Assembly (NCBI RefSeq): GCF_964204645.1
Contig: NC_134027.1
Location: 22,902,560-22,966,559, forward strand
Direction of reading: 5' to 3'
Source: Tubulanus polymorphus
Taxonomy: Eukaryota > Animalia > Nemertea
Length of the DNA: 64,000 nt
The notes under the pieces were generated by a model. The model had not been told where the DNA came from. It made no database searches and worked only from the letters and a program-made list of their open reading frames with translations. A program made the position numbers and the translations under genes. Shown piece by piece: positions 332 to 31,590 of this stretch; within the stretch, counting starts at the first letter, position 1; each line of letters opens with the position of its first letter.

Positions 332-3300
332 TCAACAACTCTTTTCCTGCTGCTCTTTTTCTTCACGTTGTCTGCGGCGTTCGGCCTCTTCTGCTTCCAA
401 ACGAGCGACGAGTTCAGCTTGAACTTGCGGCTCAACGACGCGACCGAGTTCTGAGTACGTCGAATAATCATCGAAATCACCGATAAGCACACCAGGGGGC
501 GCTTGAATTTTGACGTTGTTAACGACGTGTAAATAGATCGGTTCTTTTCTCAGTTCTTCTACATCGTCTGCATTGAATGCAGGGTTGTCGACACCACAGT
601 TAACGTACTTCACGATATCCCCATCGTCATTGTTGTAAACGTCTTGATAAGGATTCTCTTTGTCGCCAATTGTTTGATAGGGATTTTCTGAAATCATACG
701 CGTAACAACATTTAGTGAACTCAACAAACAATCCGTCAAACGATTCAGTTGGCCAGTCTACATCTGGGAATTGAAGGTTACAATAAATCTATCAAACCCT
801 CCCGCATAAAAGTGGCTGCTTTCTGAAATGCCCATGACATCGTCAAGTCTGCCCACTAGTGATTGGATATTTACTTCACGCCCTATTTTCCACAGTAAAC
901 TCTGCCTTACTTGGACTTCTTTTCTTTTCCCTTTTAGAAACGGTATTTTAGAGTTAGCGTATCGGACATCGCACAAAATTTCGATTCTCTCGTTAGAATC
1001 GGTGTACACGTAGAACTCACCCATTTCGTAGTTTCCATTTGTCTCTGCTTTTTTCGCCTTCTTTCCTTTACGCTTTTTGTTTTTCTCGACTTGCGCGTAC
1101 AATGGTTCTGCACTATCCACCGACCCTGAAGAGAAAACACGGGATGTGAATATTTTAGAAACAAACTTCACGTCATACTTTTTCTCGAATATCTAATTTG
1201 GCATTTCATTTTGTGTAGCCAACACATTTTTTTCTTCGAAAAAGTTTCTGAATGTGCTTTTGCTACAAATAAAATCCCTTTAGTATAGATTTCATTCTAT
1301 GCATTTCACCTTTCGTTTTCTGTTTCTTGCTTTTATCCACATTGGAGTTAATTGGATCAGTACCGCTTGCACCATTTACGACTGAAAATGAGCCACAAGT
1401 TTGAAAAAACAAGCAAAAAAAATTTCATACAATTCTATTCGAGAAAATCATTGTTGCGTCATCTATTATTCCTGACAACATTCGCATTATTTACAACAAC
1501 AACGATTCAGTAGTAATACTAAACTGGGAGTCATGATTTCAATGATTGAGGAAAATCGTGATTACTTTCTTAACAAAGCTTTTTCATCGAAAGTGACTTT
1601 ATTGATTCTGTACAAATTATCACGCATTTCTACGGCAATTGACGGCACTCTTCGTGTTTTCAATGATTTCAAGGAATCGGTAAAATCATGATTAGTTTCT
1701 AATGTAAGCCTCTAATGGAAGGTACCGTAGTCTATGCACTTATGGTGGCATGGAATTGTGCGCGACCAATTTCATTAAGTCTTTAGTCTAATACATCGTA
1801 AATAAAAATCGTAGCGGAAAATGCTTTTTGATTTTTTTTTTCACTTTATCTAGTTGGTTTTCATAAAACGAAATTTGAAAGAGTAAAACTATTGCCATTT
1901 CCTCTATGTAACTATGTGTATCGGTAAGTTCTTCGTGAATATACGGCACATGTAATCCTGCTATTCTAAGAGCATTTCACCAAATACGTTGATCGGTTCC
2001 TTGGTATCATTCTAGATTTGACAAACACTTGTTTACCTTGATTCTGATTTCGTTTTTTCTTTTTGTCAACCTGTGCGTAAATCGGTTCTCCTAAAAATAA
2101 TAGAATTCAAAATCTATTCCGATCGCCTCTACCATTCTTCTGGTCAATGATCGAGGAAACGATAGGTTTTTATAGATTGAGCCATCAATATTGTATCATT
2201 TGGCAATTCCCGAATATAAGTGATCACTGTACACTACCGGACATTCCCGAACATTACCGATCACTTCGATCATTACATCCAAAAATACGAACTTGAATTC
2301 GCTACACTTTAAATCAAGCTTCGGACTTAGATATTGAGATAATGAATACGTTAATTGATTCGCGGCTCGGAAATACTCGGTGGTTTTACGGAGATATCCG
2401 GCAATATCGATCGGTCCAAAAAATCTATAAAGATAGGGCATTGTAACATAAAGATAAAACTCTTACCAGTTTTCTTGACTCCATCTTCTGAAACTGCGAA
2501 TATAGAAATGGATTTATTTAAGTACTTATAATGTATTAGTTCTAATTCAGTTATGACAATATTTGTGATACAGTAATACTACGTAAAATCCTACAATTGT
2601 AAATTGGCTAGAAAAGTTTATTCTAAAATTACTCGTGATAATCTGGGGGATTACTGCCACCCTCCTACGAACACTCTTTACTTTAAAGGGAGACGGATGA
2701 AGGAGACTTTTAAGATAGAAGCAGAGTGTTAGCAGCCACCCGCAATTTTTTCGATGATTCTTTTAACAAACCTTCCACTCAATTCAGTAGATCAGAAAAT
2801 ATCTTTATTTCAATAATGACGAAGTCTCAATGAAATGAGGAAATGAACCGATTGCTTACCAAGATCGTCAATGTTCGAATACGGATCTGAAAATGTGAAA
2901 TACGTTTAAGCAACTCATAGACGGCATTGTGATTGAAGAATATTTTATAAAAGTCCGATCTTTAACTTAAAAACTCTGTGCTGAAGATAGAAAATATTTT
3001 TTTTCTTTTTCTTTGCCCATTCGGGATCTAAGAGGACAAAGACAAACGAGAATTTCAATAGTATTTTTCTCTGAAGAAATAGAAAACCCTAATAATTTGT
3101 GCCAATTTTGATACTAACTAAGAAATTCTCGAAACATTTAGAGATGCGATATAACCAAAAATATTGTGGAGATAACGTAGTTCATAATGCGAATTAAAAT
3201 CTGACTGACAAAGATTTTCGACAATAATTTGTGACATGAAACCTGTTGCAATAATCTGTTTGCGTAAATTTTCGGCGTGTAAGAAAGTTGTAAAATTGTG

Positions 3301-6300
3301 AGATTACCGAAGTCATCGGTAGTGACGTGATTATCTTTGGTCGGTGGACTTTTAGGTTTTTTGTTTACTACCGCGTACACGTCACCTAAATGCAAAAATG
3401 GAAAACAAATATTTGAACAAAAAATCCAATATATGTTTATTGTTTAGATGAGATGAAAGGTTTAAAGTGGCAAATTCTACCTCTAGGTCCGGCTGCATGT
3501 CCATCGATATTGTTATCTTTCGGAGGAGGAACTGAAGCCGGACTGAAAAAAGGGAAACATTTTGTGGCGATCGCCCGGGCTGGAAAGGGAATCTCTGACA
3601 TGGAATTAAGCTAAACAAATAGGAATTGAAATCTCTAGTTTCTACCTTCTCGAGCTATTTTTTGTCCAGATCCATTGACCTTCTCGACGCCTTTTCACGA
3701 ATAGCAACACGAACACAATGACGATGATGGCGAGCAACAATACACCCACAACAACACCTCCGATCAGTGCAACATTGGTAGTAACTGAGAGGATCGAAAA
3801 ATGGAAAAATAAAATGTGCAAATTATGACAAGGAAGTATCGATGGGCCTGGATTTCACCAGAGATATTTTTCATTAAGAGCGAACTAGCAAAATGACTAT
3901 AGACATTGGATATCTATGCATTTATTCGTTTGTTTATCTTTCTTTTCAACGTTTGCATCTTGGTTTACCGACACTAACCAGCAAATATTTACCTGGAATT
4001 TCAACCTGATGGCTCAAAATTACGTCACTTCTCTCAGTTACAATCAGTTTGTAACTGTATGCTTGATCGGGATCGATTTTAATCTCAATACTAATCGAAC
4101 CACCAGTAGTTTCTTGTTTCGTAGAATTAAAACATTCGTTTGTATGTTTGATACAGTATTTCACGTAGACGCTGTACTTCGACGGAAACGACGACATTTT
4201 TATCAGGACACTATTTCCTTGCTGTGTTACTGTCGCTTGCTTCAATACGGTGTTTATAGCGCTTGGAATAGCTAGAAAATTAGAGACCATGAATTCGATT
4301 TTAAAAAAAGACCGGAAAAATTATACCATCAACACAATCATCTAGAATGGAGTACGTGTAGCCAATCCGACTAGCTAGAACTAACAGCCGAGTTAGAATT
4401 CTCAAGTATCGGGGATCGAGGAGGCACGTATGTCGCTACGTATTCCGATTCCCATATTCGGATCAACGGGAAGCTCCATGATTCTGAATTTGACCGGAAA
4501 TGATGCGACATCGAATGTGAATGACGTCGGCAAAGTTTACTGGTAAAATGATCCGAAGCAGCTTTTTGTTTGAATTTCTTCGATGACACGCAATGAGGAT
4601 TTTTTTCGAAAATGAGGAATTTAAATCAAACAAAATTACCTAAATCAAAAACTTAACGAATTGAAGAGAATTTACGTTTAATTAATATAACGGGCTTAAG
4701 GATAGGCCTGTATCAATATCTTATAAAACTTACACATCTTACAAGCCTTTAATCTTACCATTTGTATTAGTTGTAACTATATCGGTAAATGGACTTGTAT
4801 TATCACCAGGATTTGAGTTGATACTTTTCACTTTGAACTGATAATTAGTTGCTGGTTTTAATCCGGTAATTTTTGTTTGAACCAGTTTTCTATAACCTGG
4901 GTCGGGTATTCCAGTTCTATTCACGAATCGTATGGAATTCCAAGCCCTGTAACTGACGGCGAACGTTTGTTTGGCACCACCCTCAAATTCAGACACCCAA
5001 CTCAGCGTCACAGAAACAGCTGTTTTTGCAATAACTGACAGATTTGACGGTGTTTGGGGAGGTCCTGAAACAATAAGAAAAAAAAGAAATTCGTTTTATA
5101 GTTTGCGCGCTGCACTAATTTATTAGGATTCAGCAAAATGCAGTCTCGTGTTATTCAGAGTGTTACTCTGGTATTAATCTGAAGCCTGGGCCCAGCATCC
5201 CTGCAGACATCCGACAACTCAAATATTATCAATTGATGAACGACTAACAGAAGAGTTATCATTGAAAATAGGTTTCAGGCTACAATCGATATTTGCAGGT
5301 TTTATTAGAATTGATAAGTGGTATATAGTGCTATAGTGCAAATGACTTGCGAATTTCTGAAAACAACATATAATTCGAAATAGCACATGATTCTTACCAG
5401 TTTCTGTGAGTTTCAGTGTTATATTTATGCTACCAACTGAATTATTGAGTCTACACGAATAAGATCCAAAATCAGACGCCTGAACTGATTGTATGATGAC
5501 ATTCCACTGCGTTAAACTGGTATTTTTCATTTTCCGTCGGTCATTTGTTGAATTGTGTCTACAGTTGAGAGTTGTCGCTAGCGGATTTGCATCGTAGTTT
5601 ATCGTAAATGTAACACTTTCTCCTATATTTGCGGCAACGGGTTCAACTTGTGAAGAAAGCTGCGGTGCATCTATTGTAGAATTAAACTCAATATGTAATA
5701 TTGTATGCAGTGTATATCGAATAAAAAGTTTCTAAAAAATACAAGAGTAATTTTTTTCAGCACTTGAAATATGAGAGAATGTAGAGTGTAGTCTCAAATG
5801 AAGATATGTACCAGTTGCACTAATGCTATGGGGAATTCGATCCCCTTGAGTAACGGAGTAGAACCAAAACAAAATATGGATGAAATGCGGAATATAACTT
5901 AGAATAAAGGTAGATGAATTGTTGAGAACGTTTTCCTTCGATGCAAAGTAATAATGTCCCCCGGACGCTGTCGTTGTACTGTGTATATACTGGTTGTTTA
6001 CATTGGACATCGGTAATAAAATATCACTAATACATGGAGTAAAATTCACTTGTAAGAACACAACGACGCTTTCGTAGGGTTTTTATTTGTTAACTCTACG
6101 CTGAGATGAATATCAGTTCACTAGAGTCAACTGGTTGTTGACAGCGGACATCGGCAATAAAAAGTTACCGATAAATGTAAAATTCACTCGTATGAAATCA
6201 TATCAGTTTTTTACAAGTTTTCTGTGACGAATTAATCATTCGTGGATTTGATTGATATCCGGTCATCTGATATACACTAACTACTATGTTTTACAAAATT

Positions 6301-9300
6301 AAAAGATAATTTTTCATTTTATTGCCTCGGTAATCCAAGACGTCTACCGAAACGGGTATGAATACATCTGATTATTGTGCATCATCATTTATCAAGAAGA
6401 TAAATCGCCTATTCAACACTTACACAATATAGACAACGTCATGGATTTGGTGACACCATTGACAGGATGACTGTTTTGATAAGCTGAACATCTATATTGT
6501 CTTCCATTTTTATCCCTTTCAGTTGGTACTACTAGACTACTAGTAGATGTCTGTCCACTGTGAGATCCGGGTTTATGATTTACTGCTGGATTGGGTAAAC
6601 TATTTGTCCATGTTGTCTTCCCAGAGCTGTACGCCCAGACAATTGTAGACACCGGGTTACTGGAGTCAGATGTACACGTCAGAGTTTTTGATGTACCGTG
6701 GACAACTGGACCGTTTGGAATTTGAGTCAGTGTAATCGACTCGGGTGGAACTGAAAATATAACATTGAAAGTCATGATTGATACTTTATTAGACGGTCAT
6801 TGAAAGATGCGAACATGTGATTTTCTCTTACAGTGAACGGTAATCGTTGTATCTTTGTAAAGATTTCCAGTTTGACATCTGTATCGAGCCTGATTCATGG
6901 TCTTAGTTGCATTAATAGATAATGTACTATTCGCCACAAACCCGTGATTGGCTGCACTAGTTTGACTCGTAGCTGGTTGAGAGTCAAGTCGTGTCAATGT
7001 AGAGGAATTTGTGAACCACTGAATCTGTACAGCCGGGTTTGACGAGTCAGTTTTACACTCTATCTGCTGATTGTTGTTTACTAATACATAATCTGCCGGT
7101 TTCTTCACCATTGTCAGTGTTGTTGCTAGAACTAAATTTTGGATTGTCGCAAGTAAATACAAATTCCCGATGACGTTGTTTGCAACCAAGGTGTATTTGA
7201 ATTGACTGCATGAGATTAACCAAAAATTTAAAGTTAAAAAAATCCGGGTACTTACAGTTGACAGTTAATATGACTTTATCAGAAATCATTAGTGTTGATA
7301 TACCAGCCCCAGTAGCTGTGCATCGATATTCTGCCTGGTTATCGGTTTTAGTGACGGATGTTGAATATGTCAGAGGACTAACTCCCTGTTTCACAGTGCT
7401 GTCCTCTGATATTCTAGTTATAGCCAGGTTCGGTACCGGGTTACCCCCTGTAGCTGTACACGTTATGGCAACGGGTGCGGATTCCTGAACGGGTGACGTC
7501 GGTCCTTGTAATATAACACTACTTGGTGGGTCTGAAATGAAGGAAAAAATTATCTCCAATTTACACACATTTATGTGAGCGGTCATATCTGTCAAAAATC
7601 AGCGTTTAGTCTATCTGCCTGTACTTTGATAAAATGAAATAGTCTATCGTCAAAATGTCTCAATGCAACGTCAGCTCGTGTAATATCGGCTTTTTGACAA
7701 GGGGGCAAAACTGTACGGATAATATACTGATAACTTTTTTCTTACTCCGCGATATTTCAAGGTCGTAGGCAGTACGACTGTGTATTGATAAGCCGGTTTT
7801 CGGTCTCTATTTTCGATTGGAAACCTGTCTAATAAGAGACTTCAGATCCAGTGTAATTGCTTGTCCCCGATAGATTGGTTGCCTTTCGAACTCAGGGCAA
7901 CTTGCATTTGCAGTCCGTTTGAAAAGACAAGGCATCCAGTCTATGTTCCTGATACCGATGTACCGAATCACGCATGAGCCACACCTCAGTAGGAAGTAAA
8001 CACTGCTGATGTACACTGACATACGCAATGGTCTGTCCGTCGGCACTGTTTTATACGACGGCGTCCTAGAGATATTAATCTATTTTTTATTTTCACTTTC
8101 TGGCCATAATTATTTGCGTGTTTACAAAGGCGCATAAAAGTCTCCCATGAATACGATTGCTGATCCAGGCCTTGACCGCAAAATTTCTTATGCACAAATT
8201 AAAATGGCAAAAACAGCGAAAAGCTGACAATTTTCTCAAATCCTTTTTTAACGCGCTAAAAGGGGAATTTCTCACCCACGTTTGGGTGCCCTCACCAGAA
8301 CAGGGTTCCATTCAGGCGCTCGCGCAAAAACAAAAAATTGCGTTTTTTTTAAATCTTTAGATAGGGATTGACACTCCTATCTAATTTGATCGGTAGATTT
8401 CGTAAGATTTTTTTTTGTTTTGATTTAGCGTCCCTACAAACCTACCACATCAGCCGGGAGCAAATCAGGGGTTTGATTCGAAAATCGAAGTACATTTACA
8501 GTTGTTGGATCGGCGGTTGAATATACGGAATATTTTGTTTTAATTGAAGTATATCTGACTCCCCGTCACCTTGATTCAAAATTATATGTTTTCTTGATTT
8601 ACTTTATCTACTCAATTTTCTAACACGCAGGGAAATCCGGCGAACTTAACTGCACCTTTGTAAACGCGCAGATAAATATGGCGGACTTCTCTGCGCCTTC
8701 CTAAACACGCAGATAAATATGGCCGGAAAAGTGAAAACAAAAAATAAATTAATGTCCCTAGGACGCCGTCGTATTTTTAAGTCAGAATCATATTTTTACG
8801 AACCCCGTAATCGTGCATAGATTCGCCCCTCTTAGTTGCAGAGTACGTATTTTCTTAATAGGTCGTTGCGGGGATCAAATGATTTAACGTGAACATTATA
8901 TGCCAGTTAGTGAGGAGGAAGGTCATAAAAAACTACTGTATTCCTATAACCTCAAAAATCGTACATTCAAAAGTCCTGAGTGAAGGGCATGAATTTTGCG
9001 CGAATATTTAAGAAAAGAGTGTACAATTTCCTACGACAAGCGACCTTGATATTATCGCAAAGCAGGAATATACGGTAAACATAACATACGTAAACTATCG
9101 TCCCCTTGTGTAAAACAGCCGACATTACACGATTTGACGTAACATTTACGCGTTTCTTCACTTAAGCATAATTTGTTTTCAATATTGTCTAAATCTAGGT
9201 ATGTTGGACTGGAAGATAAATTGTTTCAATGAAGTGACGTTTATTGTAAATACAGCGCATTTGTTGGTTTTCCGACTCAAATCGATGAATGTATAACCGT

Positions 9301-12300
9301 TAAACACATCACAAGCGCTATTCTACACTTACACAATACAGACAATGTCGTGGAGTTGGTGACACCATTAACGGGATGACTGTTCTGATAAGCTGTACAT
9401 CTATATTGTCTTCCATTCTTATTCTTATCAGTTGATAATACCAGACTACTAGTAGATGTCTGTCCACTGTGAGATCCGGGTTTATGATTTACTGCTGGGT
9501 TGGGTGAAATATTTATCCACGTTGTTGCCCCAGAGCTGTACGCCCACTTAATTGTAGACACCGGGTTACTGGAGTCAGTTGTACACGTCAGAGTTTTAGA
9601 TGTACCTTCAACAACTGGACCGTTTGGAATTTCAGTCAGTGTCATTGATTCTGGTGGAACTATAAACAAATATTTAAATTCACGCTCCTTCATTAGCCAT
9701 TCAGGGAAAGCGCATTTATATGAACAACAATCTACAACACTTCATTTGATATCTGAAATAGTGTTTCATACTTACAGTGAACGGTAATTGTTGTATCTTT
9801 GTACAGATTTCCAGTTTGACATCTGTATTGAGCCTGATTCATAGATTTAGTTGCAGTAATAGATAATGTGCTAGTAGCCACAAACCCGTGATAGGCTGCA
9901 CTAGTTTGACTCGTAGTTGGTTGAGAGACAAGTGCTGTCCATGTGGTGGAGGAATATATGAACCACTGAATCTGTACAGCCGGGTTTGACGAGTCAGTTT
10001 TACACTCCATCTGTTGATTATTGTTAAATAATACACGATCTGCCGGTTTCTTCACCATTGTCAGTGATGTTGCTTGAACTAGAAATAATTTGTTTCAATA
10101 TTGTCAAATCCGAGGATGTTGACGAAACAAAATCACGTCAAAAATAGAACCACATTAACTTCACGAGGTTACGAGTAATTTGTAAACAATGTATAGTACT
10201 ACTTACAGTTGACAGTTAATACGAATTTATTAGAAATCATTGGTGTTGGTATACCAGCCCCAGAAGCTGTACATTGATATTTTGCCTGGTTATCTGTTTT
10301 AGTGACGGATGTTGAATATGTTAGAGGACTAACTCCCTGTTTCACAGTGCTGTCCTCTGATGTTCTAGTTATGGCGAGGTTCGGTACCGGGTTACCCCCT
10401 GTAGCTGTACACGTGAAGTCAACGGAAATGGAATCCCGAACTGGTGACGTCGGTCCTTGTAATGCAACACTGCTTGGCGGATCTGAAATGGACGAGAAAA
10501 ATATTTTGCTAGCGGAAAAAAATTGAAGAATTGAAGCCGAAACGTCATGATTCAAAATAGAACGAATTTCATATAATTTCTCAATTCACTCTGATTAATG
10601 AACCTCTACGTGTAGTTTAGAAACAGGTTTCATTTGGTAATTAATCCGGTGCGAAATATTTTCGAATGATCTGAAATGATATATTTTAGATTTTAAACTT
10701 ACAGTAAACGGTAATCGTTGTATCCTTGTAAAGATTTCCAGTTTGACATCTGTATCGAGCTTGATTTATAGTTTTAGTTGCAGTAATAGATAATGCGCTA
10801 GTAGCCACAAACCCGTGATTGTCTGCACTAGTTTGACTCGTAGCTGGTTGAGAGGCAAGTGGTGTCCATGTTGAAGTGGAATATGTGAACCACTGAATCT
10901 GTACAGCCGGGTTTGACGAGTCAGTTCTACACTCTATCTGTTGATTATTGTTTACTAACACATAATCTGCCGGTTTCTTCATCATCGTCAGCGTTGTTGC
11001 TTGAACTAGAAATCATTTGTTCTCGATATTGTCAAAATCCGTGTGTGTTGACGAAACAAAATTATGTCAAAAATAGAACCGCAGTTACTTCATGGGAATA
11101 ACGAGTAATTTGTAAAATATCTGCAGTACTTACAGTTGACAGTTAATCTAACTTTATTTGAAATCATTGGTGTTGGTATACCAGGTCCAGTAGCTGTACA
11201 TTGATATTCTGCCTGGTTATCTGTTTTAGTGGCGGATGTTGAATATGTTAGAGGGCTTATTCCCTGTTTGACAGTGCTGCCACCTGGTGTTCTAGTTATG
11301 GTGAGGTTCGTTACCGGGTTACTCCCTGTAGCTGTACACGTTAAGTCAACGGATACGGATTCCTGAACGGGTGACGTCGGTCCTTGTAATGTAACATTAC
11401 CTGGCGGGTCTGAAATTAAAAGTGTTAAAAAGCGATTATCTTTATCGATGAGTTATATGTACAACAGCAACAGATTATTCTGTACAATTTCATATTTCAG
11501 ATTACCGGCCCAAATTCATTTGAAATGCATTAAAACCTCATATTTATTCCAAGCATAAGCTTCTGCATGAAGCTTTTTACGGAGTTATTTCTCTCATTCA
11601 AATAGATATAAAATATGAAGTATCGAGTCAAGTCCAACAATAACAATGCATTCGCATGAATACATTTCTCGTACGTTATTGATGATGTTTTAATTGTTCC
11701 GGTTCGCTGGTAAACTGCCGCATATTTTTCAAAGCCGCGTCTCACCCGATCACAATCGTGACGAATAGACTTCATGAAGAGAAAATATGGTGAATATCGA
11801 TCGATGGGAAGATTCATTTGAATGAAATATGTATATCTGTTTTAATTAATGGGACATAAGGGGTCTAGAACACACCCGATTGAATAGGGTAAAATATGCC
11901 TCAGAAGAGTCCGCGTTTAAAGGATAAACGCGTTTAGATTAATATTTTGTGGTAATCTGACGATATTTTCTTGCCTACTTCATTATTCTAGATAATTGCT
12001 TTATCCCGATGTGACCAAATGTCATTTGATAAGGATAGAATCTGAAACTTTAACATAATTCAGCCTCATAAATGCACTTCATAATAAACTCCGTAAAGGA
12101 GTCGCGCGCGTTTCCCTCAGCTTTCAACGCAGATATAGGTTATAGGTACCTATAAATATCTCATTTCTTTATCGAAATCGATGAAACACAGATTTGAAAA
12201 ACGAACTCCTTTGAATCCATTGACTGGGTTATTTCTAACAAATTTCTGTTACGAATTGCCTAATATGAATACTAGGTAAATCACGTGTGTTCATCTATCT

Positions 12301-20600: not shown

Positions 20601-23600
20601 AGGGGAGCTCAAAGGTGGGTTTCAATTCCATTTTAGCGTACAATAGGTTTGATGGCAAATTCCAATATTTCCAAATAAATTATCTGGTAAAAGTGCTTTC
20701 TTGCATTTTTTGCTTGGGGCATTAAGGGGCTATGGCCGCTCAAAAATGCTTCAGAATCATGGTCAATTTCACTTTATTTGTGTACAACGCTGAAATCTTA
20801 GTAACATAATTAACCTTTTTTTGAAAAAAACTTGCATACCCGGACAAAGTTTTAGAGAAAGCACTTCACAAAGCTAATAAAGTATCTTTCCCTGTTCTGC
20901 TCTCACTGTCCTGATTGTAACCTTTTTATATTGGGGAAACTGGGAAGAATCAAGGAACATAAACGGGATGCTTTAAAGAGGGTGAAATTAGATATGTGGG
21001 GTAGTCTCTATTCTTTGCAAATCGGGCATACTTTTGAATTTTCTGGAGCCAATATTCCTTTTCCAAACAGCAATCTCACTATAGACACCACATAGTAAGA
21101 ATCCGCTTTTGATTTGTACTCATTCTGACCGCTCTGTCAACCTCAATGAAGGTTTTAGCCCCCATTAGATCTGTGTTTCAAAATATGTCAGTACTCCAGT
21201 CCCCATAACTTAATGTGCAGTAATTCGTATCTTATTTCATGCATAGACAATGTATTTATGTACATGCGCTGTGTTTTATTTTGCAAGTCATTTTAGACTG
21301 AAGGAGGGTAATATTTCTCACATTCGAAGTAAACTTTTTAGCTATCAATTCATTTAGTGTGGAATTTTACTCGTATCGTTTTATCACGGATATTTTGTGA
21401 TCTACAACTGATTCATGTTGATGTATTAATTTTGATGTGGATGATTTCTTTTAAATTGCCAAAATCAATAATTTGGCAGGCGTATTGAAAATGTACCATC
21501 GAAACCTCCGTGGTTTCAAAATACATGCAGTTTCATAATTACAGCGCCCCCGAGTGGACCAGTTCTAACATCTCAACCAAACACCGCCATCAACAACATC
21601 GTCACAGTACAGGAGAATTCACCATTAACAATCACATGTGACGGTTCACAGTCTGGAGCTACAGGACTGACGTATATATGGAGTGGTGTCAATCCATCAG
21701 GACGGTCTAATAATAGACTCAGTTTTACACGAATCAGTAAAACTGATTCAGGTGTTTATACATGTACAGCATCGAATACAGCAGGAACAGTTACTGGTAA
21801 TATTGCCATCAATGTTCTATGTAAGTATTACGTTGAGATAGATGAACACACGTGATTTACCTAGTATTCATATTAGGTAATTTGTAGCAAAAATTTGTTG
21901 GAAATAACCCAGTCAATGGATTCAAAGGAGTTCGTTTTTCAAATCTGTGTTTCATCGATTTCGAAATATTCGAAACGAAATATTTATAGGTACCTTCCTA
22001 TATCTGCGTTGAATGCTGAGGAAAACGCGCGCGACTCCTTTATGGAGTTTATTATGAAGTGCATTTATTTTATAAGGCTGAATTATTATCAAATGACATT
22101 TTGTCACATCGGTATAAAGCAATTATCTAGGATAATGAAGTAGGCACGAAAATATCGTCAGATTACCACAAAATAATAATCTAAACGCGTTTATCCTTTA
22201 ACCACGGACTCTTCTGAGGCATATTTTACCCTATTCAATCGGGTGTGTTCTAGACCCCTTATGTCCCATTAATCATAACAGATATACATATTTCATTCAA
22301 ATGAATCTTCCCATCGATCGATATTCACGATATTTCCTCTGAAGTATATTCGTCACGATTTTGATCGGGTGAGACGCAGCTTTGAAAAGTATGCGGCAGT
22401 TTACCAGCGAACCGTAACGATTAAAACATCAATAACGTACGAGAAATTTATTCATGCGAATGCATTGTTGGACTTGACTCGATACTTCATATTTCATATC
22501 TATTTGAATGAGAGAAATAACTCAGTAAAAAGCTTCATGCAAAAGCTTATGCTTGTAATAAATATGATTTTTAATGCATTTCAAATGAATTTTGGCCGGT
22601 AATCTGAAATATGAAATTGTACAGAATAATCTGTTGCTGTTGTACATATAACTCATCGATAAAGATAATCGCTTTTTAACACTTTTAATTTCAGACCCGC
22701 CAAGTAGTGTTACATTACAAGGACCGACGTCACCCGTTCAGGAATCCGTATCTGTTAACGTAAAGTGTACAGCTACAGGGGGTAACCCGGTACCGAACCT
22801 CGCCATAACTAGAACACCAGGGGGTAGCACGATAAAACAAGGAATAAGCCCTCTAACATATTCAACATCCGTCACTAAAACAGATAACCAGGCAGAATAT
22901 CAATGTACAGCTACTGGGGCTGGTATACCGACACCAATGATTTCTAATAAAGTTAGATTAACTGTCAAATGTAAGTACTATACATTGTTTACAAATTACT
23001 TGTTATTCCCATGAAGTAATTGCGGTTCTATTTTTGATATAATTCTGTTTCGTCAACACACCCGGATTTTGACAATATCGAGAACGAATGATTTCTAGTT
23101 CAAGCAACAACGCTGAAAATGGTGAAGAAACCGGCTGATTATGTATTAGTAAACAACAATCAACAGATAGAGTGTAAAACTGACTCGTCAAACCCGGTTG
23201 TACAGATTCAGTGGTTCACATATTCCTCTACAACATGGAAACTACTTGACCCTCGACCAGCTACGAGTCAAACAAGTGCCGCCAATCACGGGTTTGTGGC
23301 TACTAGCACATTATCTATTACTGCGACTAAAACCATGAATCGAGCTCAATACAGATGTCAAACTGGAAATCTTTACAAAGATACAACGATTACCGTTTAC
23401 TGTAAGTTTAAAATACATTAGTTCTAAAATATATCATTTCAGATCATTCGAAAATATTTCGCACCGAATTAATTACCAAATGAAACCTGTTTCTAAACTA
23501 CACGTAGAGGTTCATTAATGAGAGTGAATTGAGAATTTATATGAAATTCGTTCTATTTTGAATCATGACGTTTCGGCTTCAATCCTTCAATTTTTTTCCG

Positions 23601-26600
23601 CTAGCAAAATATTTTTCTCGTCCATTTCAGATCCGCCAAGCAGTGTTGCATTACAAGGACCGACGTCACCAGTTCGGGATTCCACTTCCGTTGACTTCAC
23701 GTGTACAGCTACAGGGGGTAACCCGGTACCGAACCTGCTAATATCTAGAACACCAGTTGGCAGCACTGTGAAACAGGGAGTTAGTCCTCTAACATATTCA
23801 ACATCCGTCACTAAAACAGATAACCAGGCAAAATATCTATGTACAGCTTCTGGGGCTGGTATACCGACACCAATGATTTCTAATAAATTCGTATTAACTG
23901 TCAACTGTAAGTACTATACATTGTTTACAAATTACTCGTAACCTCGTGAAGTTAATTTGGTTCTATTTTTGTCATGATTTTGTTTCGTCAACATCCTTGG
24001 ATTTTGATAATATTGAAACAAATTATTTCTAGTTCAAGCAACATCACTGACAATGGTGAAGAAACCGGCAGATCGTGTATTATTTAACAATAATCAACAG
24101 ATGGAGTGTAAAACTGACTCGTCAAACCCGGCTGTACAGATTCAGTGGTTCATATATTCCTCCACCACATGGACAGCACTTGTCTCTCAACCAACTACGA
24201 GTCAAACTAGTGCAGCCTATCACGGTTTTATGGCTACTAGCGCATTATCTATTACTGCAACTAAATCTATGAATCAGGCTCAATACAGATGTCAAACTGG
24301 AAATCTGTACAAAGATACAACAATTACCGTTCACTGTAAGTATGAAACGCTATTTCAGATATCAAATGAAGTGTTGTAGATTGTTGTTCATATAAATGCC
24401 CTTTCCCTGAATGGCTAATGAAGGAGCGTGAATTTAAATATTTGTTTATAGTTCCACCAGAATCAATGACACTGACTGAAATTCCAAACGGTCCAGTTGT
24501 TGAAGGTACATCTAAAACTCTGACGTGTACAACTGACTCCAGTAACCCGGTGTCTACAATTAAGTGGGCGTACAGCTCTGGGGCGACAACATGGATAAAT
24601 ATTTCACCCAACCCAGCAGTAAATCATAAACCCGGATCTCACAGTGGACAGATATCTACTAGTAGTCTAGTAGTATCAACTGATAAGGATAAGAATGGAA
24701 GACAATACAGATGTACAGCTAATCAGAACAGTCATCCCGTTAATGGTCTCAACCAAACCACAACATTGTCTATATTGTGTAAGTGTGGTATAGCACGTGT
24801 AATGTGTTTAACGGTTACATATTATTTCATTCATCGATTTGAATCGGAATACCAATCATTATCTGCATCTTCATGGTTCATTAAGATTAAATCAACCAAA
24901 TGCGCTTTACTTATTTACAATTCGCATGATTTCAGTTCAACATCCGTAGATTGAGAGAATATTGAAAACAAATTATGATATGCTTAATGGTGAAAAACGG
25001 GCAGATTATGTGTTAGTAAACAATAGTCAGATCGAATGTAAAACTGAATCAGTCTTCGATCGATTTTCTTTACTTTGATAAGATATGATAGTCTACCGTC
25101 AGATTATCTCAATGTAACGTCAAATTGTTTAATATCGGCTTTCTGACACGAGGGGGCGATAGTGTGCGTATGATACGTTTGCCATATTTTTCATGTTTTG
25201 TAATATTATCAAAGTCGTTACGTAGAATCTTTGCAACTATTCCTTAATTTTCTTGCAAACTTCATGTTCTTCTCTCGGGGCTTTTGAATGTACAATTTTT
25301 GAAGTTTTAGAAACACTAGTTTTCCGGCCATTCTCCTTACGTCTGCTGTTACATAAAAATCTAACAGAGAATCACATCGAGTTACATCGTGTTCATTTAT
25401 TGGTCCTCGCAATGACCAATTAGAAAAATACCCTGCAAAGAGGTATGAATCGCTAGATGTCGTACAAAAACAGGGTTTGGACTGTATTCCCGTTTTGCAT
25501 ATTTCGGTAGAAGAGCTGACATGCGCAGTAAGAATCAATTCTGTACTCAGTAAGAACCTTCACGCTCTGGACGAGTTCTCCATAGTTCATGCAAGAAATT
25601 ATTGGCGTAATCGAGTCTATGAGAATAAATCAATTCTGACTTGAAACGGTACCAACAAGCGGACCCCTGCAGGTGTTTGTCTTATTTGGGTGTTTTTCTT
25701 TATCAGCAGTGCTTACTTCCTACTGAAGTGGCGCATGCCTGATGCGGTACATCGGTATCAGGGACATAGACTGGTTGCCTTGTCTTTTCGAACTTACTGC
25801 GAATGCAGTGGCCCTGAATTCGACAGGCAACCATTCTATCAGGGACAACGATTACAACGATTACCGTTCACTGTAAGAGAAAATCACATGTTCGCATCTT
25901 TCAATGACCGTCTAATAAAGTATCAATCATGACTTTCAATGTTATATCTTCAGTTCCACCCGAGTCAATTACACTGACTGAAATTCCAAACGGTCCAGTT
26001 GTTCACGGTACATCAAAAACTCTGACATGTACAACTGAATCCATTAACCCGGTGTCTACAATTGTCTGGGCGTACAGCTCTTGGACGACAACGTGGACAA
26101 ATATTTCACCCAACCAAGCAGTAAATCATAAACCCGGATCTCACAGTGCACGGGCATCTACTAGTAGTCTAGTAGTACCAACTGATAAGGATAAAAATGG
26201 AAGACAATATAGATGTACAGCTTATCAGAACAGTCAAACTGTCAATGGTGTCAACACATCCATGACGTTGTCTATATTGTGTGAGTGTTGAATAGGCGAT
26301 TTATCTTCTTGATAAATGAAAATGCACAATAATCAGATGTATTCGTAGCCGTTTCGGTAGAGGTCTTGGATTACTGTAGCAATGAAATGAAAAATTATCT
26401 TTTAATTTTGTAAAACATAGTAGTTAGTGTTTATCAGATGACTGGATATCAATCAAATCCACGAATGATTAATTCGTCACAAAAAACTTATAAAAACTGA
26501 TTGCAGTAAAAACTGATATGATTTCATACGAGGGAATTTTACTCCATTTATCGGTAACTTTTTATTGCCGATGTCCGCTGTGAACAACCAGTATGACTAT

Positions 26601-29600
26601 AGTGAACTGTTATTTATCTCATAAAAACCCTACGAAAACGTCGTTGTGTTCTTACAAATGAACTTTACTCTATCTATCAGTGATATTTTATTACCGATGT
26701 CCAATCTAAACAACCAGTATATACACAGTACAACGACAGCGTCCGGGGGGACATAATTACTTTGCATCGAAGGAAAACATTCTCAACAATTCATCTATCT
26801 TTATTCTAAGTTCTATTCCGAATTTCATCCATATTTTGTTTCAATTCTACTCCGTTACGCAAGGGGATCAAATTCCTCTCATAGCATTAGCGCAACTGGT
26901 ACATATATTCATTTGAGACTACACTGTACATTCTTTCATATTTCAAGTGCTGAAAAAGTTACTCTTGTATTTTTTAGAAACTTTTTATTCTATATACACT
27001 AGACACAATATTACATATTTAGTTTAATTCTACAATAGATGCACCGCAGCTTTCTTCACAAGTTGAACCCGTTGCCGCAAATATAGGAGAAAGTGTTAGA
27101 TTTACGATAAACTACGATGCAAATCCGTTAGCGACAACTCTCAACTGTAGACACAATTCAACAAATGACCGACGGAAATTGAAAAAGACCAGTTTAACGC
27201 AGTGGAATGTCATCATACAATCAGTTCAGGCGTCTGATTTTGGATCTTATTCGTGTAGACTCAATAATTCAGTTGGTAGCATAGAGATAACACTGAAACT
27301 CACAGAAACTGGTAAGAATCATGTGCTATTTCGAATTATATGTTGTTTTCAGAAATTCGCAGTCATTTGCACTATAGCACTATTTACCACTTATCAATTC
27401 TAATGAAACCTGCAAATATCGATTGCAGCCTGAAACCTATTTTCAATGATAACTCTTCTGTTAGTCGTTCATCAATTGATAATATTTGAGTAGTCGGATG
27501 TCTGGAGGGATGCTGGGCCCAGGGTTCAGATTAATACCGGAGTAACACTCTGAATAACACGAGACTGCATTTTGCTGAACTGGGATCCCAATAAATTAGT
27601 GCAGCGCGCGAACTATAAAACGAATTTCTTTTTTTTCTTATTGTTTTAGGACCTCCCCAAACACCGTCAAATCTGTCAGTTATTGCAAAAACAGGCATTT
27701 CTGTGACATTGAGTTGGGTGTCTGAATTTGAGGGTGGTGCCAAACAAACGTTTGCTGTCAGTTACAGGGCTTGGAATTCCATACAATTCGTGAATAAAGC
27801 TGAAATACCCGATCCCGGTTATAGAAAACTGGTGCAAACGAAAATAACCGGTTTAAAACCGGCAACTGATTACCAGTTCAAAGTGAAAAGTGTCAACTTA
27901 AATGTAGGTGATAATACAAGTCCATTTACTGATATAGTTACAACTAATACAAATGGTAAGATTGAAGGCTTGTTAGATATGTAAGTTTTATAAGATATAA
28001 ATACAGGCCTATTTTTAAGCCCGTTGGAATAATTAAACGTAAATTCCTCATTACTTTAAGTTTCTGATTAGGATGATTTTGTTTGAGTTGAATTCCTCAT
28101 TCTCGGAAAATCCTCATTGCGTGTCATCGAAGAAATTCAAACAAAAAGTTCCTTCGGATTATTTTACCAGTAAACTTTGCCGATGTCATTCACATTCGAT
28201 GTCGCATCATTTTCGGTCAAATTCAGAATCAAGGAGCTTCCCGTTGATACGAATATAGGAATCGGAATACGTAGCGACATACGTGCCTCCTCGATCCCCG
28301 ATCTTGAGAATTCTATCTCGGCTGTTAGTTCCAGCTAGTGGGATTGGCTGCACCCACTCCTTTCTAGATGATTGTGTTGATGATGTATCAATTGTTTTCA
28401 GGATGATATTGATATCGGATTTGTTTTTCTCATTTTTCAGCTATTCCAATCGCTTTAATCACCGCAATGAAGCAAGCGACAGTAACACAGAAAGGAAATA
28501 GTGTCCTGATAAAATTGTCGTCGTTTCCGTCGAAGTACAGTGTCTACGCGGAATACTGTTTCAAAAATACGAACGAATGTTTTAATTCTACGAAACTAGA
28601 AAGTACTGGCGGTTCGATTAGTATTGAGATTAAAATCGATCCCGATCAAGCATACAGTTACCAACTGATTGTAACTGAGAGTAGTGACGTGATTCTGAGC
28701 CATCAGGTTGAAATTCCAGGTAAATATTTGCTGGTTAGTGTCGGTAAACCAAGATCCAAACGTTGAAAAGAGAAAGACAAACAAACAAATAAATGCATAG
28801 ATATCCCAACCACGCCTATAGTCATTTTGCTAGTTCGCTTTTAATGAAAAATATCTCTGGTGAAATCCAGGCCCATCGATACTTCCTTGTCATAATTTGC
28901 ACATTTTATTTTCCCATTTTTCGATCCTCTCAGTTACTACCAATGTTGCACTGATCGGAGGTGTTGTTGCTGGTGTATTGTTGGTCGCCATCATCGTTAT
29001 TGTGTTCGTGTTTCTATTCGTGAAAGGTCGTCGAGACGGTCAATGGATCTGGACAAAATACTGCACGAAAAGGTTTATGTTTCTTTTTGTTTATACGTTA
29101 CTAGAAGCTTCCTCTTCTATTCGCTAAGCTTAATCGAATGTCAATAGATTAATTTCCATGCTGAGCAATAGACTCTTATTTTGTCTTTAAGGTATGTCCT
29201 ACCCGTTTGTGTCCTATTCCCTTTTTAGATGGGCCAAAGAAAAAAGCAATGCCGTCCTTTGATTTGTACGAGCCATAAAAAACGATAGTCCTTTTTTCAA
29301 CAATAAGTGTCATTAATTCCACCAATGACTTCATTAATTTTGACGATAAGGACATATTTCGTGATGTAAAAGTGGGCAATTTTCGGTGATATATTTCAAA
29401 AATCAGAATATTATAAATGGTCTCGAAACTGGTTGTACACGTTAGTTACACCACGAGAAGATTCGAATCCCAATATTCCATTTAACCGATCCCTTTCACT
29501 AGCGACAATTATATTTTCGAAATGTGTAATCGACGTGTAAATAATGCAGCGAAATCATTCTTTCATTTCAGAAAAACTGGAGAATCACAAGTTGGTAAAT

Positions 29601-31590
29601 GAAGTAGAAATAGATTTGTTATTCGATGGGAAATATAATATAATGATAATATTATCAGTAATTTCATCATTATTTGAATTACAGGCCTTCTAGGGTTTCA
29701 TCGGTTTTCCATACACTGAATATTTTTAAAACGAATACGTAACATCAATTCTATGATATTTTTGATAATAGCGTCATTCTTGAACAGAATTGTTCTTATA
29801 ATTTCAGTTTATTCGAACACGAAGGAATCCCCGTGTATGTATATTCGATGCATTTTCTGCCTTCGTGTCTCACTGTGAATTGAGTTTACTATCGAAAAAT
29901 ATGATATTTCAGACTCTTACGCCACGGTAACACCGAACGTAAATGCGGCTTTTGAAGGTGGTAAGTCAATTATCATTAAATCACTTTTTCAATTTAACTT
30001 ATTATACGTACATTTCTATGAAAACATCTATGAGAAAGTTTACAAAATTTTAGTCTCACCAGTGGCAAGATGTCGTCGACATCTGTACCAACTATTTTTG
30101 TTCCAAATCCTCACAGCCGCTATTCCAAAGTGCCACCTTATCATTTTAGGGATACGAATCATTTTTCTTATCTCATAGAATTTCAGGGCTTTTAAAGATT
30201 TTATCAGTTTTTACGAAACCCCACAAGGTGAAAACTCATTTTTCCGTGGCCACTGAGTAGAGACAATAGCTTGATGTAAGTGCTTAATGACCTCACCATC
30301 TTCTAACCAGTCTCACTGCTTCTATTCTACCCCCTCCTGAACGGCGCTATAGCTATCCTTTACATGTCCCTATATTCTATTATAGCAACTAAATGCTCTT
30401 CTATCTTTCCAACAAACTCCCACCTTGTAATCTGAGCCATTTGCCATCAGTGTGCACACTGCACACTCTACTCATATATACATTTAACTATTGAATCTAC
30501 ACCAAAAAATAATCTTCCGTTCGAACGGAAAGGTTTGTGGCCTCGAAAAAAATATGTATTTCTCAGCATGTTACCATAGGTTTTCTATTTACTTACACTG
30601 AATATTATATTTTTTCAATCTTGGAATAATTTTCATCATTTCAGTCTATTCAACCAGTAATCAAGCCCATGGCACAGATCTGTGTATGTTTATTCGATGC
30701 ATTTGATACTTTCTCATTTCACTGCGAATTTAGTTTACAATTTATGGAATATGACATTTCAGACTCTTACGCCGCGGCCACAAGGAGCGTAAACAAGGCT
30801 TTTAACGGTAGGTCAATTATCATTGAATTAAGTCACACATTTCTATGAGAAAATCTAGAAAATCTAGGAGACAATATAGAAAAATTCTAACGAAGGGCTA
30901 GCTATCGTAGACATTTTGTTTCAATCATCCTTGACCTAGCCTCCGCGCCTGCCTTGTCATTTTCGGGAAAGTGAGCATTTCATTAATCCGCTTGCATTCT
31001 TAGTTTTCCTTCTTTAAAATCTGGCTTCTGAAGATATTTTACTGTTTTCTAAAAACACTGAATATGTGATATTAGGAAATTCATACATATCATCTATGTT
31101 TTTCTGGATATAATTGATTTTATATTTATTCCTTGAACCGAATTTCCACCATTGCAGTTTAATCAAACAGTAATGAAGCATATGACAAAGACACGCGTAT
31201 GGATTATATTCGTTTCATCTGAAACCGTCTTATCTCCCTGTGAAATGCGTTTACTATTGATAAAATCATATTTCAGACTCTTACGCTGAGGAAACACTGT
31301 ATGTAAATGTAGCTTTTGGCGGTAAGCAAGTCATCATTAAATCACTTCATCGATTATCATTAACCCATACCATAAAATTCATCGATAGACATCATTCTAA
31401 GCAAACAATTTAGAATCTTCACAAAAGACTTAGATATCGTCGGGTTTTTCAACTACTCGTCACCTAAGCTCCGCGGCCGCTTTATCATTTTTTTTGGGAT
31501 AGTGATAACTATGTGTTTTGTTTGTTTCCTTCATTAGAAGCAGACTCTGTAACTGGTGACCAGAACCATTATGAAGAAGTCAGGAACTAG
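17695..31590 (+). CDS. Gene B1: IgSF receptor (signal peptide, V, 8 further Ig, FN3, FN3-like, TM, repeat-built Tyr tail)
   Basis: Exons: 17695-17706 (MYGK), 18038-18089 (MCLAGIVVSFLMWKGIIG), V 19003-19344, Ig 21545-21820, 22695-22970, 23099-23401, 23631-23906, 24033-24335, 24452-24778, 25954-26280, 27039-27311, FN3 27650-27955, 28441-28719, TM 28934-29072, tail 29572-29594, 29808-29834, 29913-29960, 30645-30683, 30763-30807, (31158-31196 contains TAA), 31277-31321, ~31538-31590 ending HYEEVRN*. Confidence 0.82.
19003..19344 (+). CDS. V-like N-terminal Ig exon of B1
   Basis: Within ORF 18990..19433; ttcag acceptor and gtaagc donor; 342 nt. Confidence 0.85.
19572..21375 (+). mobile_element. 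Decayed Penelope-like retroelement with inverted pseudo-LTRs in the V-Ig2 intron of B1
   Basis: PYGPPKIRKSNVPLRILSS resembles PLE YGLPKIHKxxxPLRPI; LLELCARRAYFQFD, WRSYVDY (YVDD-like) and EWEFDGRNPFFDV (LPFLDV-like) follow with frameshifts. Imperfect inverted ends cttcagtctaaaatgact / agtcattttagactgaag. Confidence 0.75.

Follow-up and report, generated by a model that had tools for sequence, protein, structure and literature searches.

Paired receptors kept alike by gene conversion are a textbook pattern in vertebrates, and they are usually accounted for by a race between hosts and pathogens, in which pathogens turn inhibitory receptors to their own use. Several described systems resemble the locus reported here, a head-to-head receptor pair (genes A and B) in a 64,000-nucleotide stretch of the genome of the ribbon worm Tubulanus polymorphus (the window), whose outer, antibody-like parts are ~94% identical in DNA and whose inner tails are unrelated; what is said of these systems is taken from the portions of the cited reports on which we draw. 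The primate genes Siglec-11 and Siglec-16 likewise lie head-to-head, and their ectodomain region has been homogenised by repeated conversion, non-functional alleles included (PMC5701461). Conversion there spans ~3 kb, and Siglec-16 relies on an adaptor with an ITAM (PMC5701461). Here the block runs for ~10 kb from the V to the transmembrane (TM) exon, and the TM of B is uncharged and followed by a tyrosine tail of its own; no sequence link joins the Siglec pair to the ribbon-worm genes. CEACAM1/CEACAM3 and the Xenopus Ceacam pairs, in which each partner has a signalling tail, also lie in opposite orientation, with conversion that ends at splice sites and an activating tyrosine to which Src, Nck and Vav bind (PMC7026191, PMC5112662). 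Their conversion takes in the N exon only and their activating tail is ITAM-like (PMC7026191, PMC5112662), in contrast to the ribbon-worm genes, which share the whole ectodomain with its introns, lack an ITAM and have tandem EPIYA-like sites in the tail that looks inhibitory. Among invertebrates, Fester and the Fester co-receptors of Botryllus are head-to-head IgSF pairs that were duplicated as pairs, lie on more than one chromosome and have had ectodomains and tails mixed by recombination; unlike A and B, the partners belong to different families with unlike ectodomains, one of them is described without tyrosine motifs, and the animal is a colonial chordate in which the genes are tied to a known allorecognition locus (PMC12582321). 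The Alr genes of Hydractinia are clustered V + Ig + FN3 + TM genes with varied tyrosine tails, unlike the ribbon-worm genes in that 14 Alr tails hold true ITAMs and the Ig domains are cysteine-less, and the part of that report used here describes no matched A/B couples (bioRxiv 2022.03.04.482883). Our searches turned up no paired-receptor case in Lophotrochozoa. If ribbon worms have a vertebrate-style pairing, built on a different scaffold and without ITAM or adaptor, it would show convergence and test the arms-race explanation outside vertebrates, and the family offers concrete candidate receptors for nemertean immunity.

Layout of the gene pair and its shared block

The preliminary description placed A and B in divergent transcription, and this is borne out: the start codons lie at 16757 (reverse strand) and 17695 (forward strand) with 937 bp between them, and all introns are GT-AG. 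The features are as follows.

332–16757, reverse strand: gene A, 24 exons, 1622 aa, open frame, all introns GT-AG; in order leader, V, 10 more Ig, FN3, beta-rich domain X, TM, 8 tail exons
16192–16757, reverse strand: A leader exons (16737–16757 and 16192–16252), A-type signal peptide, the same leader type as in A-type paralogues
16758–17694, no strand: stretch between the start codons (937 bp, coordinates observed), likely a shared bidirectional promoter, a predicted function
17695–31590, forward strand: gene B, 22 exons, 1256 aa provided that exon 31158–31196 is skipped; in order leader, V, 8 more Ig, FN3, X, TM, tail
17695–18089, forward strand: B leader exons (17695–17706 and 18038–18089), B-type signal peptide, the same leader type as in B-type paralogues

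Both NCBI models of these genes are partial and lack leader and V: residues 316–1622 of A equal XP_074646837 (1307/1307) and residues 309–831 of B equal XP_074644275 (523/523), which ends ahead of the TM. The exon structure of the A tail agrees with the NCBI model. For the A leader, exon 16737–16757, which matches paralogue models, was preferred to a 12-nt alternative set off by a 44-nt intron. Pfam gave no name to domain X (best E 0.024), and Rfam returned no matches.

3646–15357, reverse strand: inverted-repeat arm in gene A, from the V acceptor to the TM donor
19003–29072, forward strand: inverted-repeat arm in gene B, from the V acceptor to the TM donor, with a TM exon of A type
14014–14800 (limits approximate), reverse strand: dispersed repeat in the V-to-second-Ig intron, common to A, B and their copies A' and B'
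6859–9263, reverse strand: block with two Ig exons (7256–7531 and 6832–7131) in A and A', only relics of it in B at 24856–25844
12316–12591, reverse strand (A), and 21545–21820 (B): second Ig exon, with excess amino-acid change among the four window copies

The V-to-TM segments had been described as near-identical inverted repeats, introns included. The identity stands (exons 3228/3448, 93.6%; introns 5175/5492, 94.2%), but the repeat is interrupted and falls into segments 14014–15371 versus 18990–20354 (93.1%), 9264–13736 versus 20345–24855 (91.7%) and 3644–6858 versus 25845–29074 (91.5%). Because A 6859–9263 has no collinear partner in B, A has 11 Ig exons and B has 9. Protein identity between A and B is 87.8% overall, 85% in V and 77% in the second Ig. 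The limits of homology at the V acceptor and TM donor are as sharp as claimed, with an ungapped identity per 20 nt of 4–8 before V and 16–19 in the first 160 nt of V, and of 18–20 in the TM exon (last bin 14/19) and 0–8 past the TM donor. In line with the earlier view of leaders and cytoplasmic exons as unrelated, the two leaders share only matches of at most 15 nt (E 0.12 or worse), and the cytoplasmic exons gave no match at E 1 and a tail-versus-tail score like that of shuffles (p 0.55). Gene B joins an A-type TM exon to a B-type tail; the TM exon of other B-type genes differs from it. The supposed intronic transposable element is indeed a dispersed repeat, to judge by DNA contigs, which have loose ends and raised depth there. 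It may resemble a reverse-transcriptase relic, but Pfam gave it no name.

The entire A/B pair is present again at 41039–64000, and a further gene lies in the window.

34264–37758, forward strand: gene C, 5'-truncated, with B-type tail and B-type TM and a phase mismatch between the X and TM exons
41039–58075, reverse strand: gene A', an open-frame tandem copy of A with 25 exons and 1646 aa
59016–64000, forward strand: gene B', tandem copy of B, with leader, V and second Ig inside the window

For A' and B', contig depth does not separate a true duplicate from an uncollapsed haplotype, and the DNA contigs do not tell alleles from paralogues. No leader or V was found upstream of gene C, which is likely a relic. 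Between A and A', divergence is greater across the ectodomain (4.7–7.1%) than across tail and promoter (2.8–4.1%). Among 50 informative sites in the window, 15 group across types and are clustered (p 0.00025); the remaining 35 group by type, so conversion since the duplication of the pair has been patchy.

The receptor family and the probable exchange of ectodomains

The family in T. polymorphus comprises ~22 models with three tail types and includes shuffled domains, relic genes and several models without a TM. All matches in a V search (16/16) and in an FN3-to-tail search (15/15) came from T. polymorphus, and the family appears to be a lineage-specific expansion. Two proteins matched in a tail search, P0032 and P0033, were repeat-rich chance matches and were dropped. 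The best V match of 89% had raised the idea that the window is a divergent haplotype; this was overturned by models identical to A and B, and because these exist, the other family proteins were treated as paralogues.

On another contig, of 16.5 Mb, we found a second couple, P0037 with leader and tail of type A and P0030 with those of type B, with linkage known to contig level only and ectodomains identical at 843/888 residues (94.9%). These ectodomains show 60–82% identity per domain to those of the window genes, and the tails of P0037 and P0030 show 66% and 35% identity to the window A and B tails, respectively, and 8–13% across types. In ectodomain trees P0037 and P0030 were joined at 100/100 and an A-type clade was rejected, and AU tests on these trees reject grouping by tail type (p 0.0014 and 3e-60). 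Ectodomains cluster by locus and tails by type, so ectodomains have very probably been exchanged between the A and B types, at two loci. The evolutionary half of the paired-receptor reading put forward earlier, a homogenised ectodomain with distinct tails, is supported by the identity within the second couple and by the AU rejections. The A-type P0026 and the D-type P0027 might make a third couple, as they have architecture, leader type and last Ig clade in common, but with a per-domain identity of only 69–86% they were left uncounted.

Cytoplasmic tails and predicted signals

332–3542, reverse strand: A tail, 8 exons, with DVYAVV, DPYSNI, EPIYAQV, EPLYAQV, STYSEL (ITIM pattern) and a charged C-terminal stretch
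29572–31590, forward strand: B tail, 8 small exons, an exon pair repeated three-fold, with VYSN, YSYATV, TLYVNV and a terminal HYEEV
31158–31196, forward strand: stop-bearing B tail exon of 39 nt with an in-frame TAA, phase 1-1, which can be skipped without a frame change

The preliminary description named EPIYA-type motifs and an ITIM (STYSEL) in the A tail and called both TMs uncharged; the motifs are present as named, and charged residues are absent from the TM spans of both genes. The YSN, YVN, TLYVNV and terminal YEEV it assigned to the B tail are also all there, but the in-frame TAA in exon 31158–31196 means that this exon must be skipped for TLYVNV and the terminal YEEV to be translated, and YSN and YVN do not discriminate between A and B because the A tail has them too. 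A spanning DNA contig of run X1 shows no difference at the stop.

Across the family, in counts whose rows are paralogues and hence not independent, the ITIM pattern (S/I/V/L)xYxx(I/V/L) occurs in 9/9 A tails and 0/9 B tails (the match in P0026 being a different site), the EPIYA-like pattern Y[AST][KRQN][VIM] in 8/9 A tails and 0/9 B tails, the YEEV-like terminal pattern Y[ED][ED][VI] in 9/9 B tails and 0/9 A tails, YxN in 9/9 B tails and 7/9 A tails, the ITSM pattern TxYxxV in 7/9 B tails, and an ITAM in 0/20 family tails. No homology was detected among A, B and D tails (profile scores <5 bits; shuffle p 0.02–0.94), and Pfam gave no name to the A tail. According to the excerpts used here, EPIYA-A/B of CagA bind Csk and EPxYAxV motifs are depleted from mammalian proteomes (PMC3593179), EPLYA of p140Cap binds Csk (PMC3561454), and TxYxxV is placed among inhibitory motifs for CEACAM1. 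By its ITIM and EPIYA-like sites the A tail looks inhibitory, signalling partners being assigned by mammalian consensus patterns.

Among the features that mark paired receptors, highly similar ectodomains were found in both couples (A/B 87.8% in protein, P0037/P0030 94.9%), as were linked genes with cross-type ectodomain exchange (the second couple linked at contig level only) and one ITIM member (all A tails); the second member lacks both an ITAM and a charged TM for an ITAM adaptor, and its candidate activating motifs, Y[ED][ED][VI] and YxN, stand beside TxYxxV in 7/9 B tails. We propose, with a probability of about 0.5, that two old types of gene, distinct in leader and tail, carry near-identical ectodomains, likely through repeated non-allelic conversion, and would bind a common ligand and send opposite signals, likely in immune defence. 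The pair is likely a paired-receptor system that evolved independently, with predicted opposite signals like those in vertebrate immunity. Taken singly, opposing signals from A and B have a slightly better than even chance, and an immune rather than a neural or adhesive role is marginally favoured; the split into inhibitory and activating functions put forward earlier is still a prediction. The evidence gives allorecognition no edge over pathogen defence or adhesion.

In such a paired-receptor system the shared promoter region would place A and B in one cell, a ligand would cluster the receptors, and Src- or Abl-type kinases would phosphorylate the tails. The tandem EPIYA-like sites of A would then engage Csk and its ITIM an SHP-type phosphatase, damping Src signalling, and the YEEV and YxN motifs of B would engage Src-family kinases, Nck and Grb2 for actin-based uptake or activation without an adaptor chain. 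The inverted layout would favour conversion, and selection would keep B matched to whatever engages A. A narrower version, which we hold to be doubtful, has a nephrin-like adhesion scaffold give rise to paired immune receptors in a lophotrochozoan, with a tandem-EPIYA Csk dock (a host version of a CagA-type effector) on the inhibitory side, a lone terminal YEEV replacing the ITAM on the activating side and conversion re-matching each locus. The A tail also places tandem EPxYAxV motifs in an animal's own receptor.

Several observations count against the paired-receptor explanation: the V identity of only 85% and the purifying selection on V, with only a marginal excess of amino-acid change in the second Ig; the stop exon in the B tail and the partial NCBI models; the 35 window sites that group by type; the absence of an ITAM from all tails, the ITSM-like B tails and the YxN motifs in A tails.

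Scaffold, selection and alternative readings

The nephrin-like scaffold of the preliminary description was recovered as a distant likeness (21–25% identity). The closest relatives outside T. polymorphus are insect and fish nephrins (profile search, E down to 5e-66), and the best solved-structure match is SYG-2 (E 4e-18). A V + Ig array + FN3 + TM architecture emerged from Pfam on the exons, the SYG-2 match and the V-set fold of a paralogue model. Structure prediction of the window V from a 16-row alignment gave a pLDDT of 32; the model of paralogue P0034, with nephrins added to the alignment, is usable for V only and has a generic V-set fold that matches Necl, Rst, DIP and antibody V domains alike. 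Nephrin, Sticks-and-stones and SYG-2 share with the ribbon-worm genes a V, many C2/I-type Ig, FN3 and TM; in contrast to them, the ribbon-worm V has six cysteines and no C-strand tryptophan, domain X is extra, the internal repeats vary in number and the genes form a large multigene family.

These relatives and the breadth of the fold speak for a cell-recognition or adhesion code of the nephrin/SYG-2, Side/Beat or Dpr/DIP kind, in which one ectodomain would feed two outputs to the cytoskeleton of neurons, muscle or nephridia and play no part in immunity, as does the use of YDEV-type Nck sites by nephrin tails. We regard this reading as unlikely: the identity to nephrins, over shifting registers, is below the 31–33%, collinear, between insect and fish (medaka) nephrins, T. 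polymorphus alone has ~22 models, with domains shuffled and some genes reduced to relics, against the one or two copies per genome of nephrin/Sns/SYG-2 orthologues, and whole-ectodomain dN/dS is 0.66–0.75. A conserved nephrin orthologue would have spoken against the earlier account, and one-to-one orthology looks unlikely from the same registers and copy number; no separate true T. polymorphus nephrin was among the matches listed in a word-limited search. Even with a neural or adhesive role, it would be unusual for one ectodomain to be joined to two tails and re-matched at two loci.

It is improbable that the likeness of A and B is a neutral by-product, in which close inverted genes convert mechanically, the shared ectodomain is of no adaptive value and copies of B type are left to drift or decay. 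Introns are as similar as exons, inverted orientation promotes conversion according to the passages used of PMC5112662, and the stop-bearing B exon, truncated gene C and several models without a TM would fit; the sharp block ends are a weak argument against neutral conversion because unrelated flanks halt conversion anyway. However, VYSN, YVNV-like and YEEV-like motifs are retained in the B-type tails of 9 genes, the A and B ectodomain frames are open across ~1,000 codons or more with dN/dS <1, and the A-plus-B coupling is seen again at the second locus. V, the predicted ligand-binding domain, is under purifying selection (p 0.002); the second Ig has dN/dS >1 in 6/6 pairs, with 33 non-synonymous versus 5 synonymous changes (p 0.045, uncorrected over 11 tests and so marginal).

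Quite improbable is a reading in which A and B are co-operating subunits that pair in one membrane and act jointly through their tails, as the sections consulted of PMC12582321 propose for Botryllus FF/FcoR. The head-to-head order and duplication of the whole pair recall that system, and the lack of an ITAM and the ITSM-like motifs in B would agree with it; yet FF and FcoR are different families, FF being described there without tyrosine motifs (PMC12582321), whereas A and B each carry a full tyrosine tail, their ectodomains are near-identical, and B is two Ig domains shorter than A.

Compared with the paired-receptor reading, a polymorphic locus of homophilic self/non-self receptors like Hydractinia Alr is very unlikely, with no Alr match in V, FN3-to-tail and profile searches and hence no sequence link. 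Tubulanus polymorphus is moreover solitary. The V + Ig + FN3 + TM order, tandem cluster, exon shuffling and tyrosine tails recall Alr, but Alr domains 2–3 are described without the paired cysteines that the ribbon-worm Ig domains keep (bioRxiv 2022.03.04.482883).

Gene layout and the shared A/B block

The window (36.7% G+C) contains large internal repeats: three inverted blocks with 91.5-93.1% identity relate 3644-15371 to 18990-29074, and direct repeats carry the whole A/B arrangement again about 41 kb further on. Exon models of the head-to-head IgSF receptor genes A and B and of their tandem copies A' and B' were derived from splice sites, with GT-AG at every intron; C is a third, B-type gene (types are classes by tail).

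Gene A: 332-16757, minus strand, 24 exons, 1622 residues
Gene B: 17695-31590, plus strand, 22 exons
Gene C: 34264-37758, TM and tail of the B type, leader and V absent upstream, exon phases of X and TM mismatched
Gene A': 41039-58075, 25 exons, 1646 residues
Gene B': start at 59016, continues beyond the window end

Between the A and B start codons lie 937 bp, in line with the divergent transcription proposed in the preliminary description. Aligned positions of A and B are identical at 3228 of 3448 exon and 5175 of 5492 intron sites. At either end, the V acceptor and the TM donor, it takes no more than a few bases for identity to drop to that expected by chance. When leaders and tails were compared, no match longer than 15 nt was found, confirming that they are unrelated. 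The claim of near-identical inverted repeats from V to TM holds for the identity and the sharp ends but not for the full content, as B lacks two Ig exons (nine versus 11 in A) and the A block 6859-9263 survives in B only as relics. Likewise, the suggested intronic transposable element is a dispersed repeat common to A, A', B and B', but a Pfam search of it named no family. The tandem repeat of the whole pair (A', B') spans 40698-64000 and could represent either a genuine duplication or a haplotype left uncollapsed. Gene C, likely a relic, follows B in the same orientation and could derive from an older 3' half of B or be an alternative 3' end. Between C and A', a very high-copy short repeat (39560-39780) has a contig depth of tens of thousands in DNA sequencing run X1.

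The receptor family and its scaffold

All 16 matches to the V exon and all 15 to the B-type FN3-to-tail segment were proteins of the palaeonemertean Tubulanus polymorphus. Of six matches to the last A exon, four likewise came from this species and two were dropped as repeat artefacts. XP_074646837 corresponds to A (1307/1307 residues identical, every tail micro-exon included) and XP_074644275 to B (523/523); both NCBI models begin at an internal methionine, without leader, V and second Ig, and the B model ends before the TM. The closest NCBI models found for A' and B' were 91.9% and 89.5% identical, respectively; neither gene had an exact counterpart among them. With isoforms merged by accession and sequence, the family comprises about 22 models (nine with A-type, eight with B-type and two with D-type tails, three without TM), 20 on a 27.8 Mb contig and two on a 16.5 Mb contig, labelled by NCBI as nephrin-like, syg-2-like, NCAM-like, contactin-like or uncharacterised. 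Leader type tracks tail type in most members, the exception being the divergent A-type P0026, with a leader as in D genes. The D genes (P0009/P0027, P0040/P0087; 27.8 Mb contig) encode a short V-Ig-Ig-TM receptor with a tail ending in YEEI; they have the same leader type as the A-type P0008/P0026, and the last Ig of both falls in one clade. P0012, P0015/P0034 and P0019, B-type-leader models without TM plus a short-tailed A isoform, may represent secreted receptors, receptors that do not signal, or models that are incomplete.

Pfam assigned the exons to V-set (weak, under the curated cut-off), Ig_2/Ig_3, C2-set_2, I-set and fn3, and gave no confident family for the exon before the TM (domain X; 3993-4271 and 28441-28719), which encodes about 92 residues with two close cysteines and may be an FN3 that has degenerated, comparable to the Alr spacer. 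Six cysteines are conserved in the V domain, and the C-strand tryptophan is missing; modelling of the paralogue P0034 gave a V-set fold with high confidence (pLDDT mainly 83-95) that matches antibody VH (Z 11.9, rmsd 2.4 over 105 residues), Necl/CRTAM (Z 11.4) and Rst (Z 10.8). In a family profile search, insect and medaka nephrins were the next matches outside the family, and the best solved-structure match was SYG-2 (E 4e-18). The nephrin-like scaffold proposed earlier is thus retained as a description of build but not of orthology: family members align to nephrins at 21-25% identity in shifting registers, whereas insect and medaka nephrins align collinearly at 31-33%. A role as an adhesion or neural code, the foremost alternative to paired receptors, is considered unlikely.

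Ectodomain exchange between A and B types at two loci

The 16.5 Mb contig carries a second couple, linked at contig level, of one A-type (P0037) and one B-type gene (P0030). The two ectodomains agree at 843 of 888 residues, versus 60-82% per domain against window A or B; tail identity is 66% for P0037 and window A, 35% for P0030 and window B and 8-13% across types. Tail types were assigned from leaders and tails before trees were built from members with all domains, excluding C and D-type rows (V and second Ig, 16 rows; last Ig, FN3 and X, 14 rows). Both trees joined P0037 with P0030 (support 100/100), A-type and B-type genes were intermingled in the window clade, and an A-type clade was rejected in the two ectodomain trees (AU p 3e-60 and 0.0014). 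Since tails group by type and ectodomains by locus, both tail types predate the split of the two loci, and ectodomain DNA has therefore crossed types at least twice, demonstrating exchange at both loci. TM exons differ by type in the second couple, and window B has an A-type TM exon, so that this stretch most likely passed from A to B.

Of the 50 informative sites in the 3.6 kb common to the four window copies (A, A', B and B'), 35 grouped by type, seven by physical pair and eight crosswise, clustered in 15 runs (p 0.00025). Between A and A', divergence is 2.8-4.1% in tails and promoter and 4.7-7.1% in the ectodomain, the latter about the A versus B difference. Patchy conversion involving many members of the family accounts for this better than the constant polishing of a single pair. 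Over the whole ectodomain, dN/dS was 0.66-0.75 (upper 95% limits 0.89-0.99). In the second Ig it exceeded 1 in all six, non-independent, pairs, with 33 replacement versus five silent changes (p 0.045 before correction for 11 tests) and p 0.003 for change against intron variation; V and FN3 are under purifying selection. The marginal second-Ig excess and the constraint on V and FN3 make the selection signal weak and place it off the expected domain. Neutral conversion, ranked second among the alternatives, is judged improbable. Within the A type, P0006 and P0022 have identical last Ig, FN3 and X and very different V domains, that of P0022 being 66-70% identical to window V domains, an instance of V swapping.

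Signalling tails and predicted paired function

Motifs were tallied in nine A, nine B and two D tails, with window A represented by its NCBI model and one near-copy model excluded. The ITIM pattern occurred in 9/9 A, 0/9 B and 0/2 D tails; Y[AST][KRQN][VIM], which we take to be the Csk-SH2 pattern, in 8/9, 0/9 and 0/2; Y[ED][ED][VI], presumably the Src/Nck pattern, in 0/9, 9/9 and 2/2; TxYxxV/I in 0/9, 7/9 and 0/2; and YxN in 7/9, 9/9 and 2/2. No ITAM was found in these 20 tails (nine A, nine B, two D), and the A/B family differs here from paired receptors with their ITAM/adaptor feature. The motifs first listed for B (YSN, YVN, TLYVNV, YEEV) are all encoded, but YSN and YVN also occur in A, and TLYVNV and YEEV need the 39-nt exon 31158-31196 to be skipped because it holds an in-frame stop; a run X1 DNA contig across it has three differences, none at the stop. 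Deletions directly after YEEV in that run (31538-31610) and the consistent tail of paralogue P0002, 10 residues longer, indicate that YEEV is not always terminal. The B tail at 29808-31321 is an exon pair repeated three times, single in other B-type genes, and has retained the conserved PYVNV tyrosine in only one of the three copies. The DPIYSNV tail exon (1310-1381; 42018-42346) is doubled in A' and three paralogues and single, as DPINSNV, in A; the number of tyrosine sites varies through exon duplication and point change.

CagA EPIYA-A/B segments are reported to bind Csk, which inhibits Src kinases, cytoplasmic Pragmin to sequester Csk through EPIYA and raise Src activity, and EPxYAxV to be depleted in mammalian proteomes (PMC3593179); Csk binding by p140Cap needs EPLYA (PMC3561454). 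A receptor at the membrane would more probably behave like CagA than like Pragmin, with the sign not guaranteed. In CEACAM3 a single tyrosine is described as binding Src kinases, Nck and Vav and driving uptake (PMC7026191); for CEACAM1 the ITSM is classed with inhibitory motifs (PMC5112662), which weakens a simple activating reading of B tails. In the predicted mechanism, a shared promoter would co-express A and B, which would bind one common ligand; the A tail would recruit Csk and an SHP phosphatase and damp Src signalling, the B tail would activate through Src, Nck and Grb2, and microbes engaging A would be the selecting agent. We give this whole mechanism a probability of about one half; the gene layout, shared block and tail types beneath it are demonstrated. 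That A and B are instead co-operating subunits ranks third and is doubtful.

Comparable arrangements are described for Siglec-11/16 (a head-to-head pair separated by about 9 kb whose similarity is maintained by conversion; PMC5701461), Xenopus Ceacam pairs (conversion ending exactly at splice sites; PMC5112662) and Botryllus FF/FcoR (head-to-head, duplicated as pairs; PMC12582321), although FF/FcoR partners belong to unlike families (PMC12582321). Hydractinia Alr genes are reported to have ITAMs or ITIMs (bioRxiv 2022.03.04.482883); allorecognition is the least probable role for A and B. Couples with matched ectodomains may be present in the supplements of the Alr and FF/FcoR papers. Among the matches listed (at most the top 25 per search), mostly open-access literature, none described the family or lophotrochozoan paired receptors, and 'paired', 'nephrin' and 'nemert' are absent from a 2025 invertebrate IgSF review (PMC11999971). 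The genomic pattern of A/B pairs is well supported as real, and A/B is paired-receptor-like in layout and evolution, with a functional role predicted from sequence. Directly after its ITIM, the A tail ends in a conserved, charged segment resembling a helix or coiled coil (332-440), present in all nine A-type tails and divergent in P0026.
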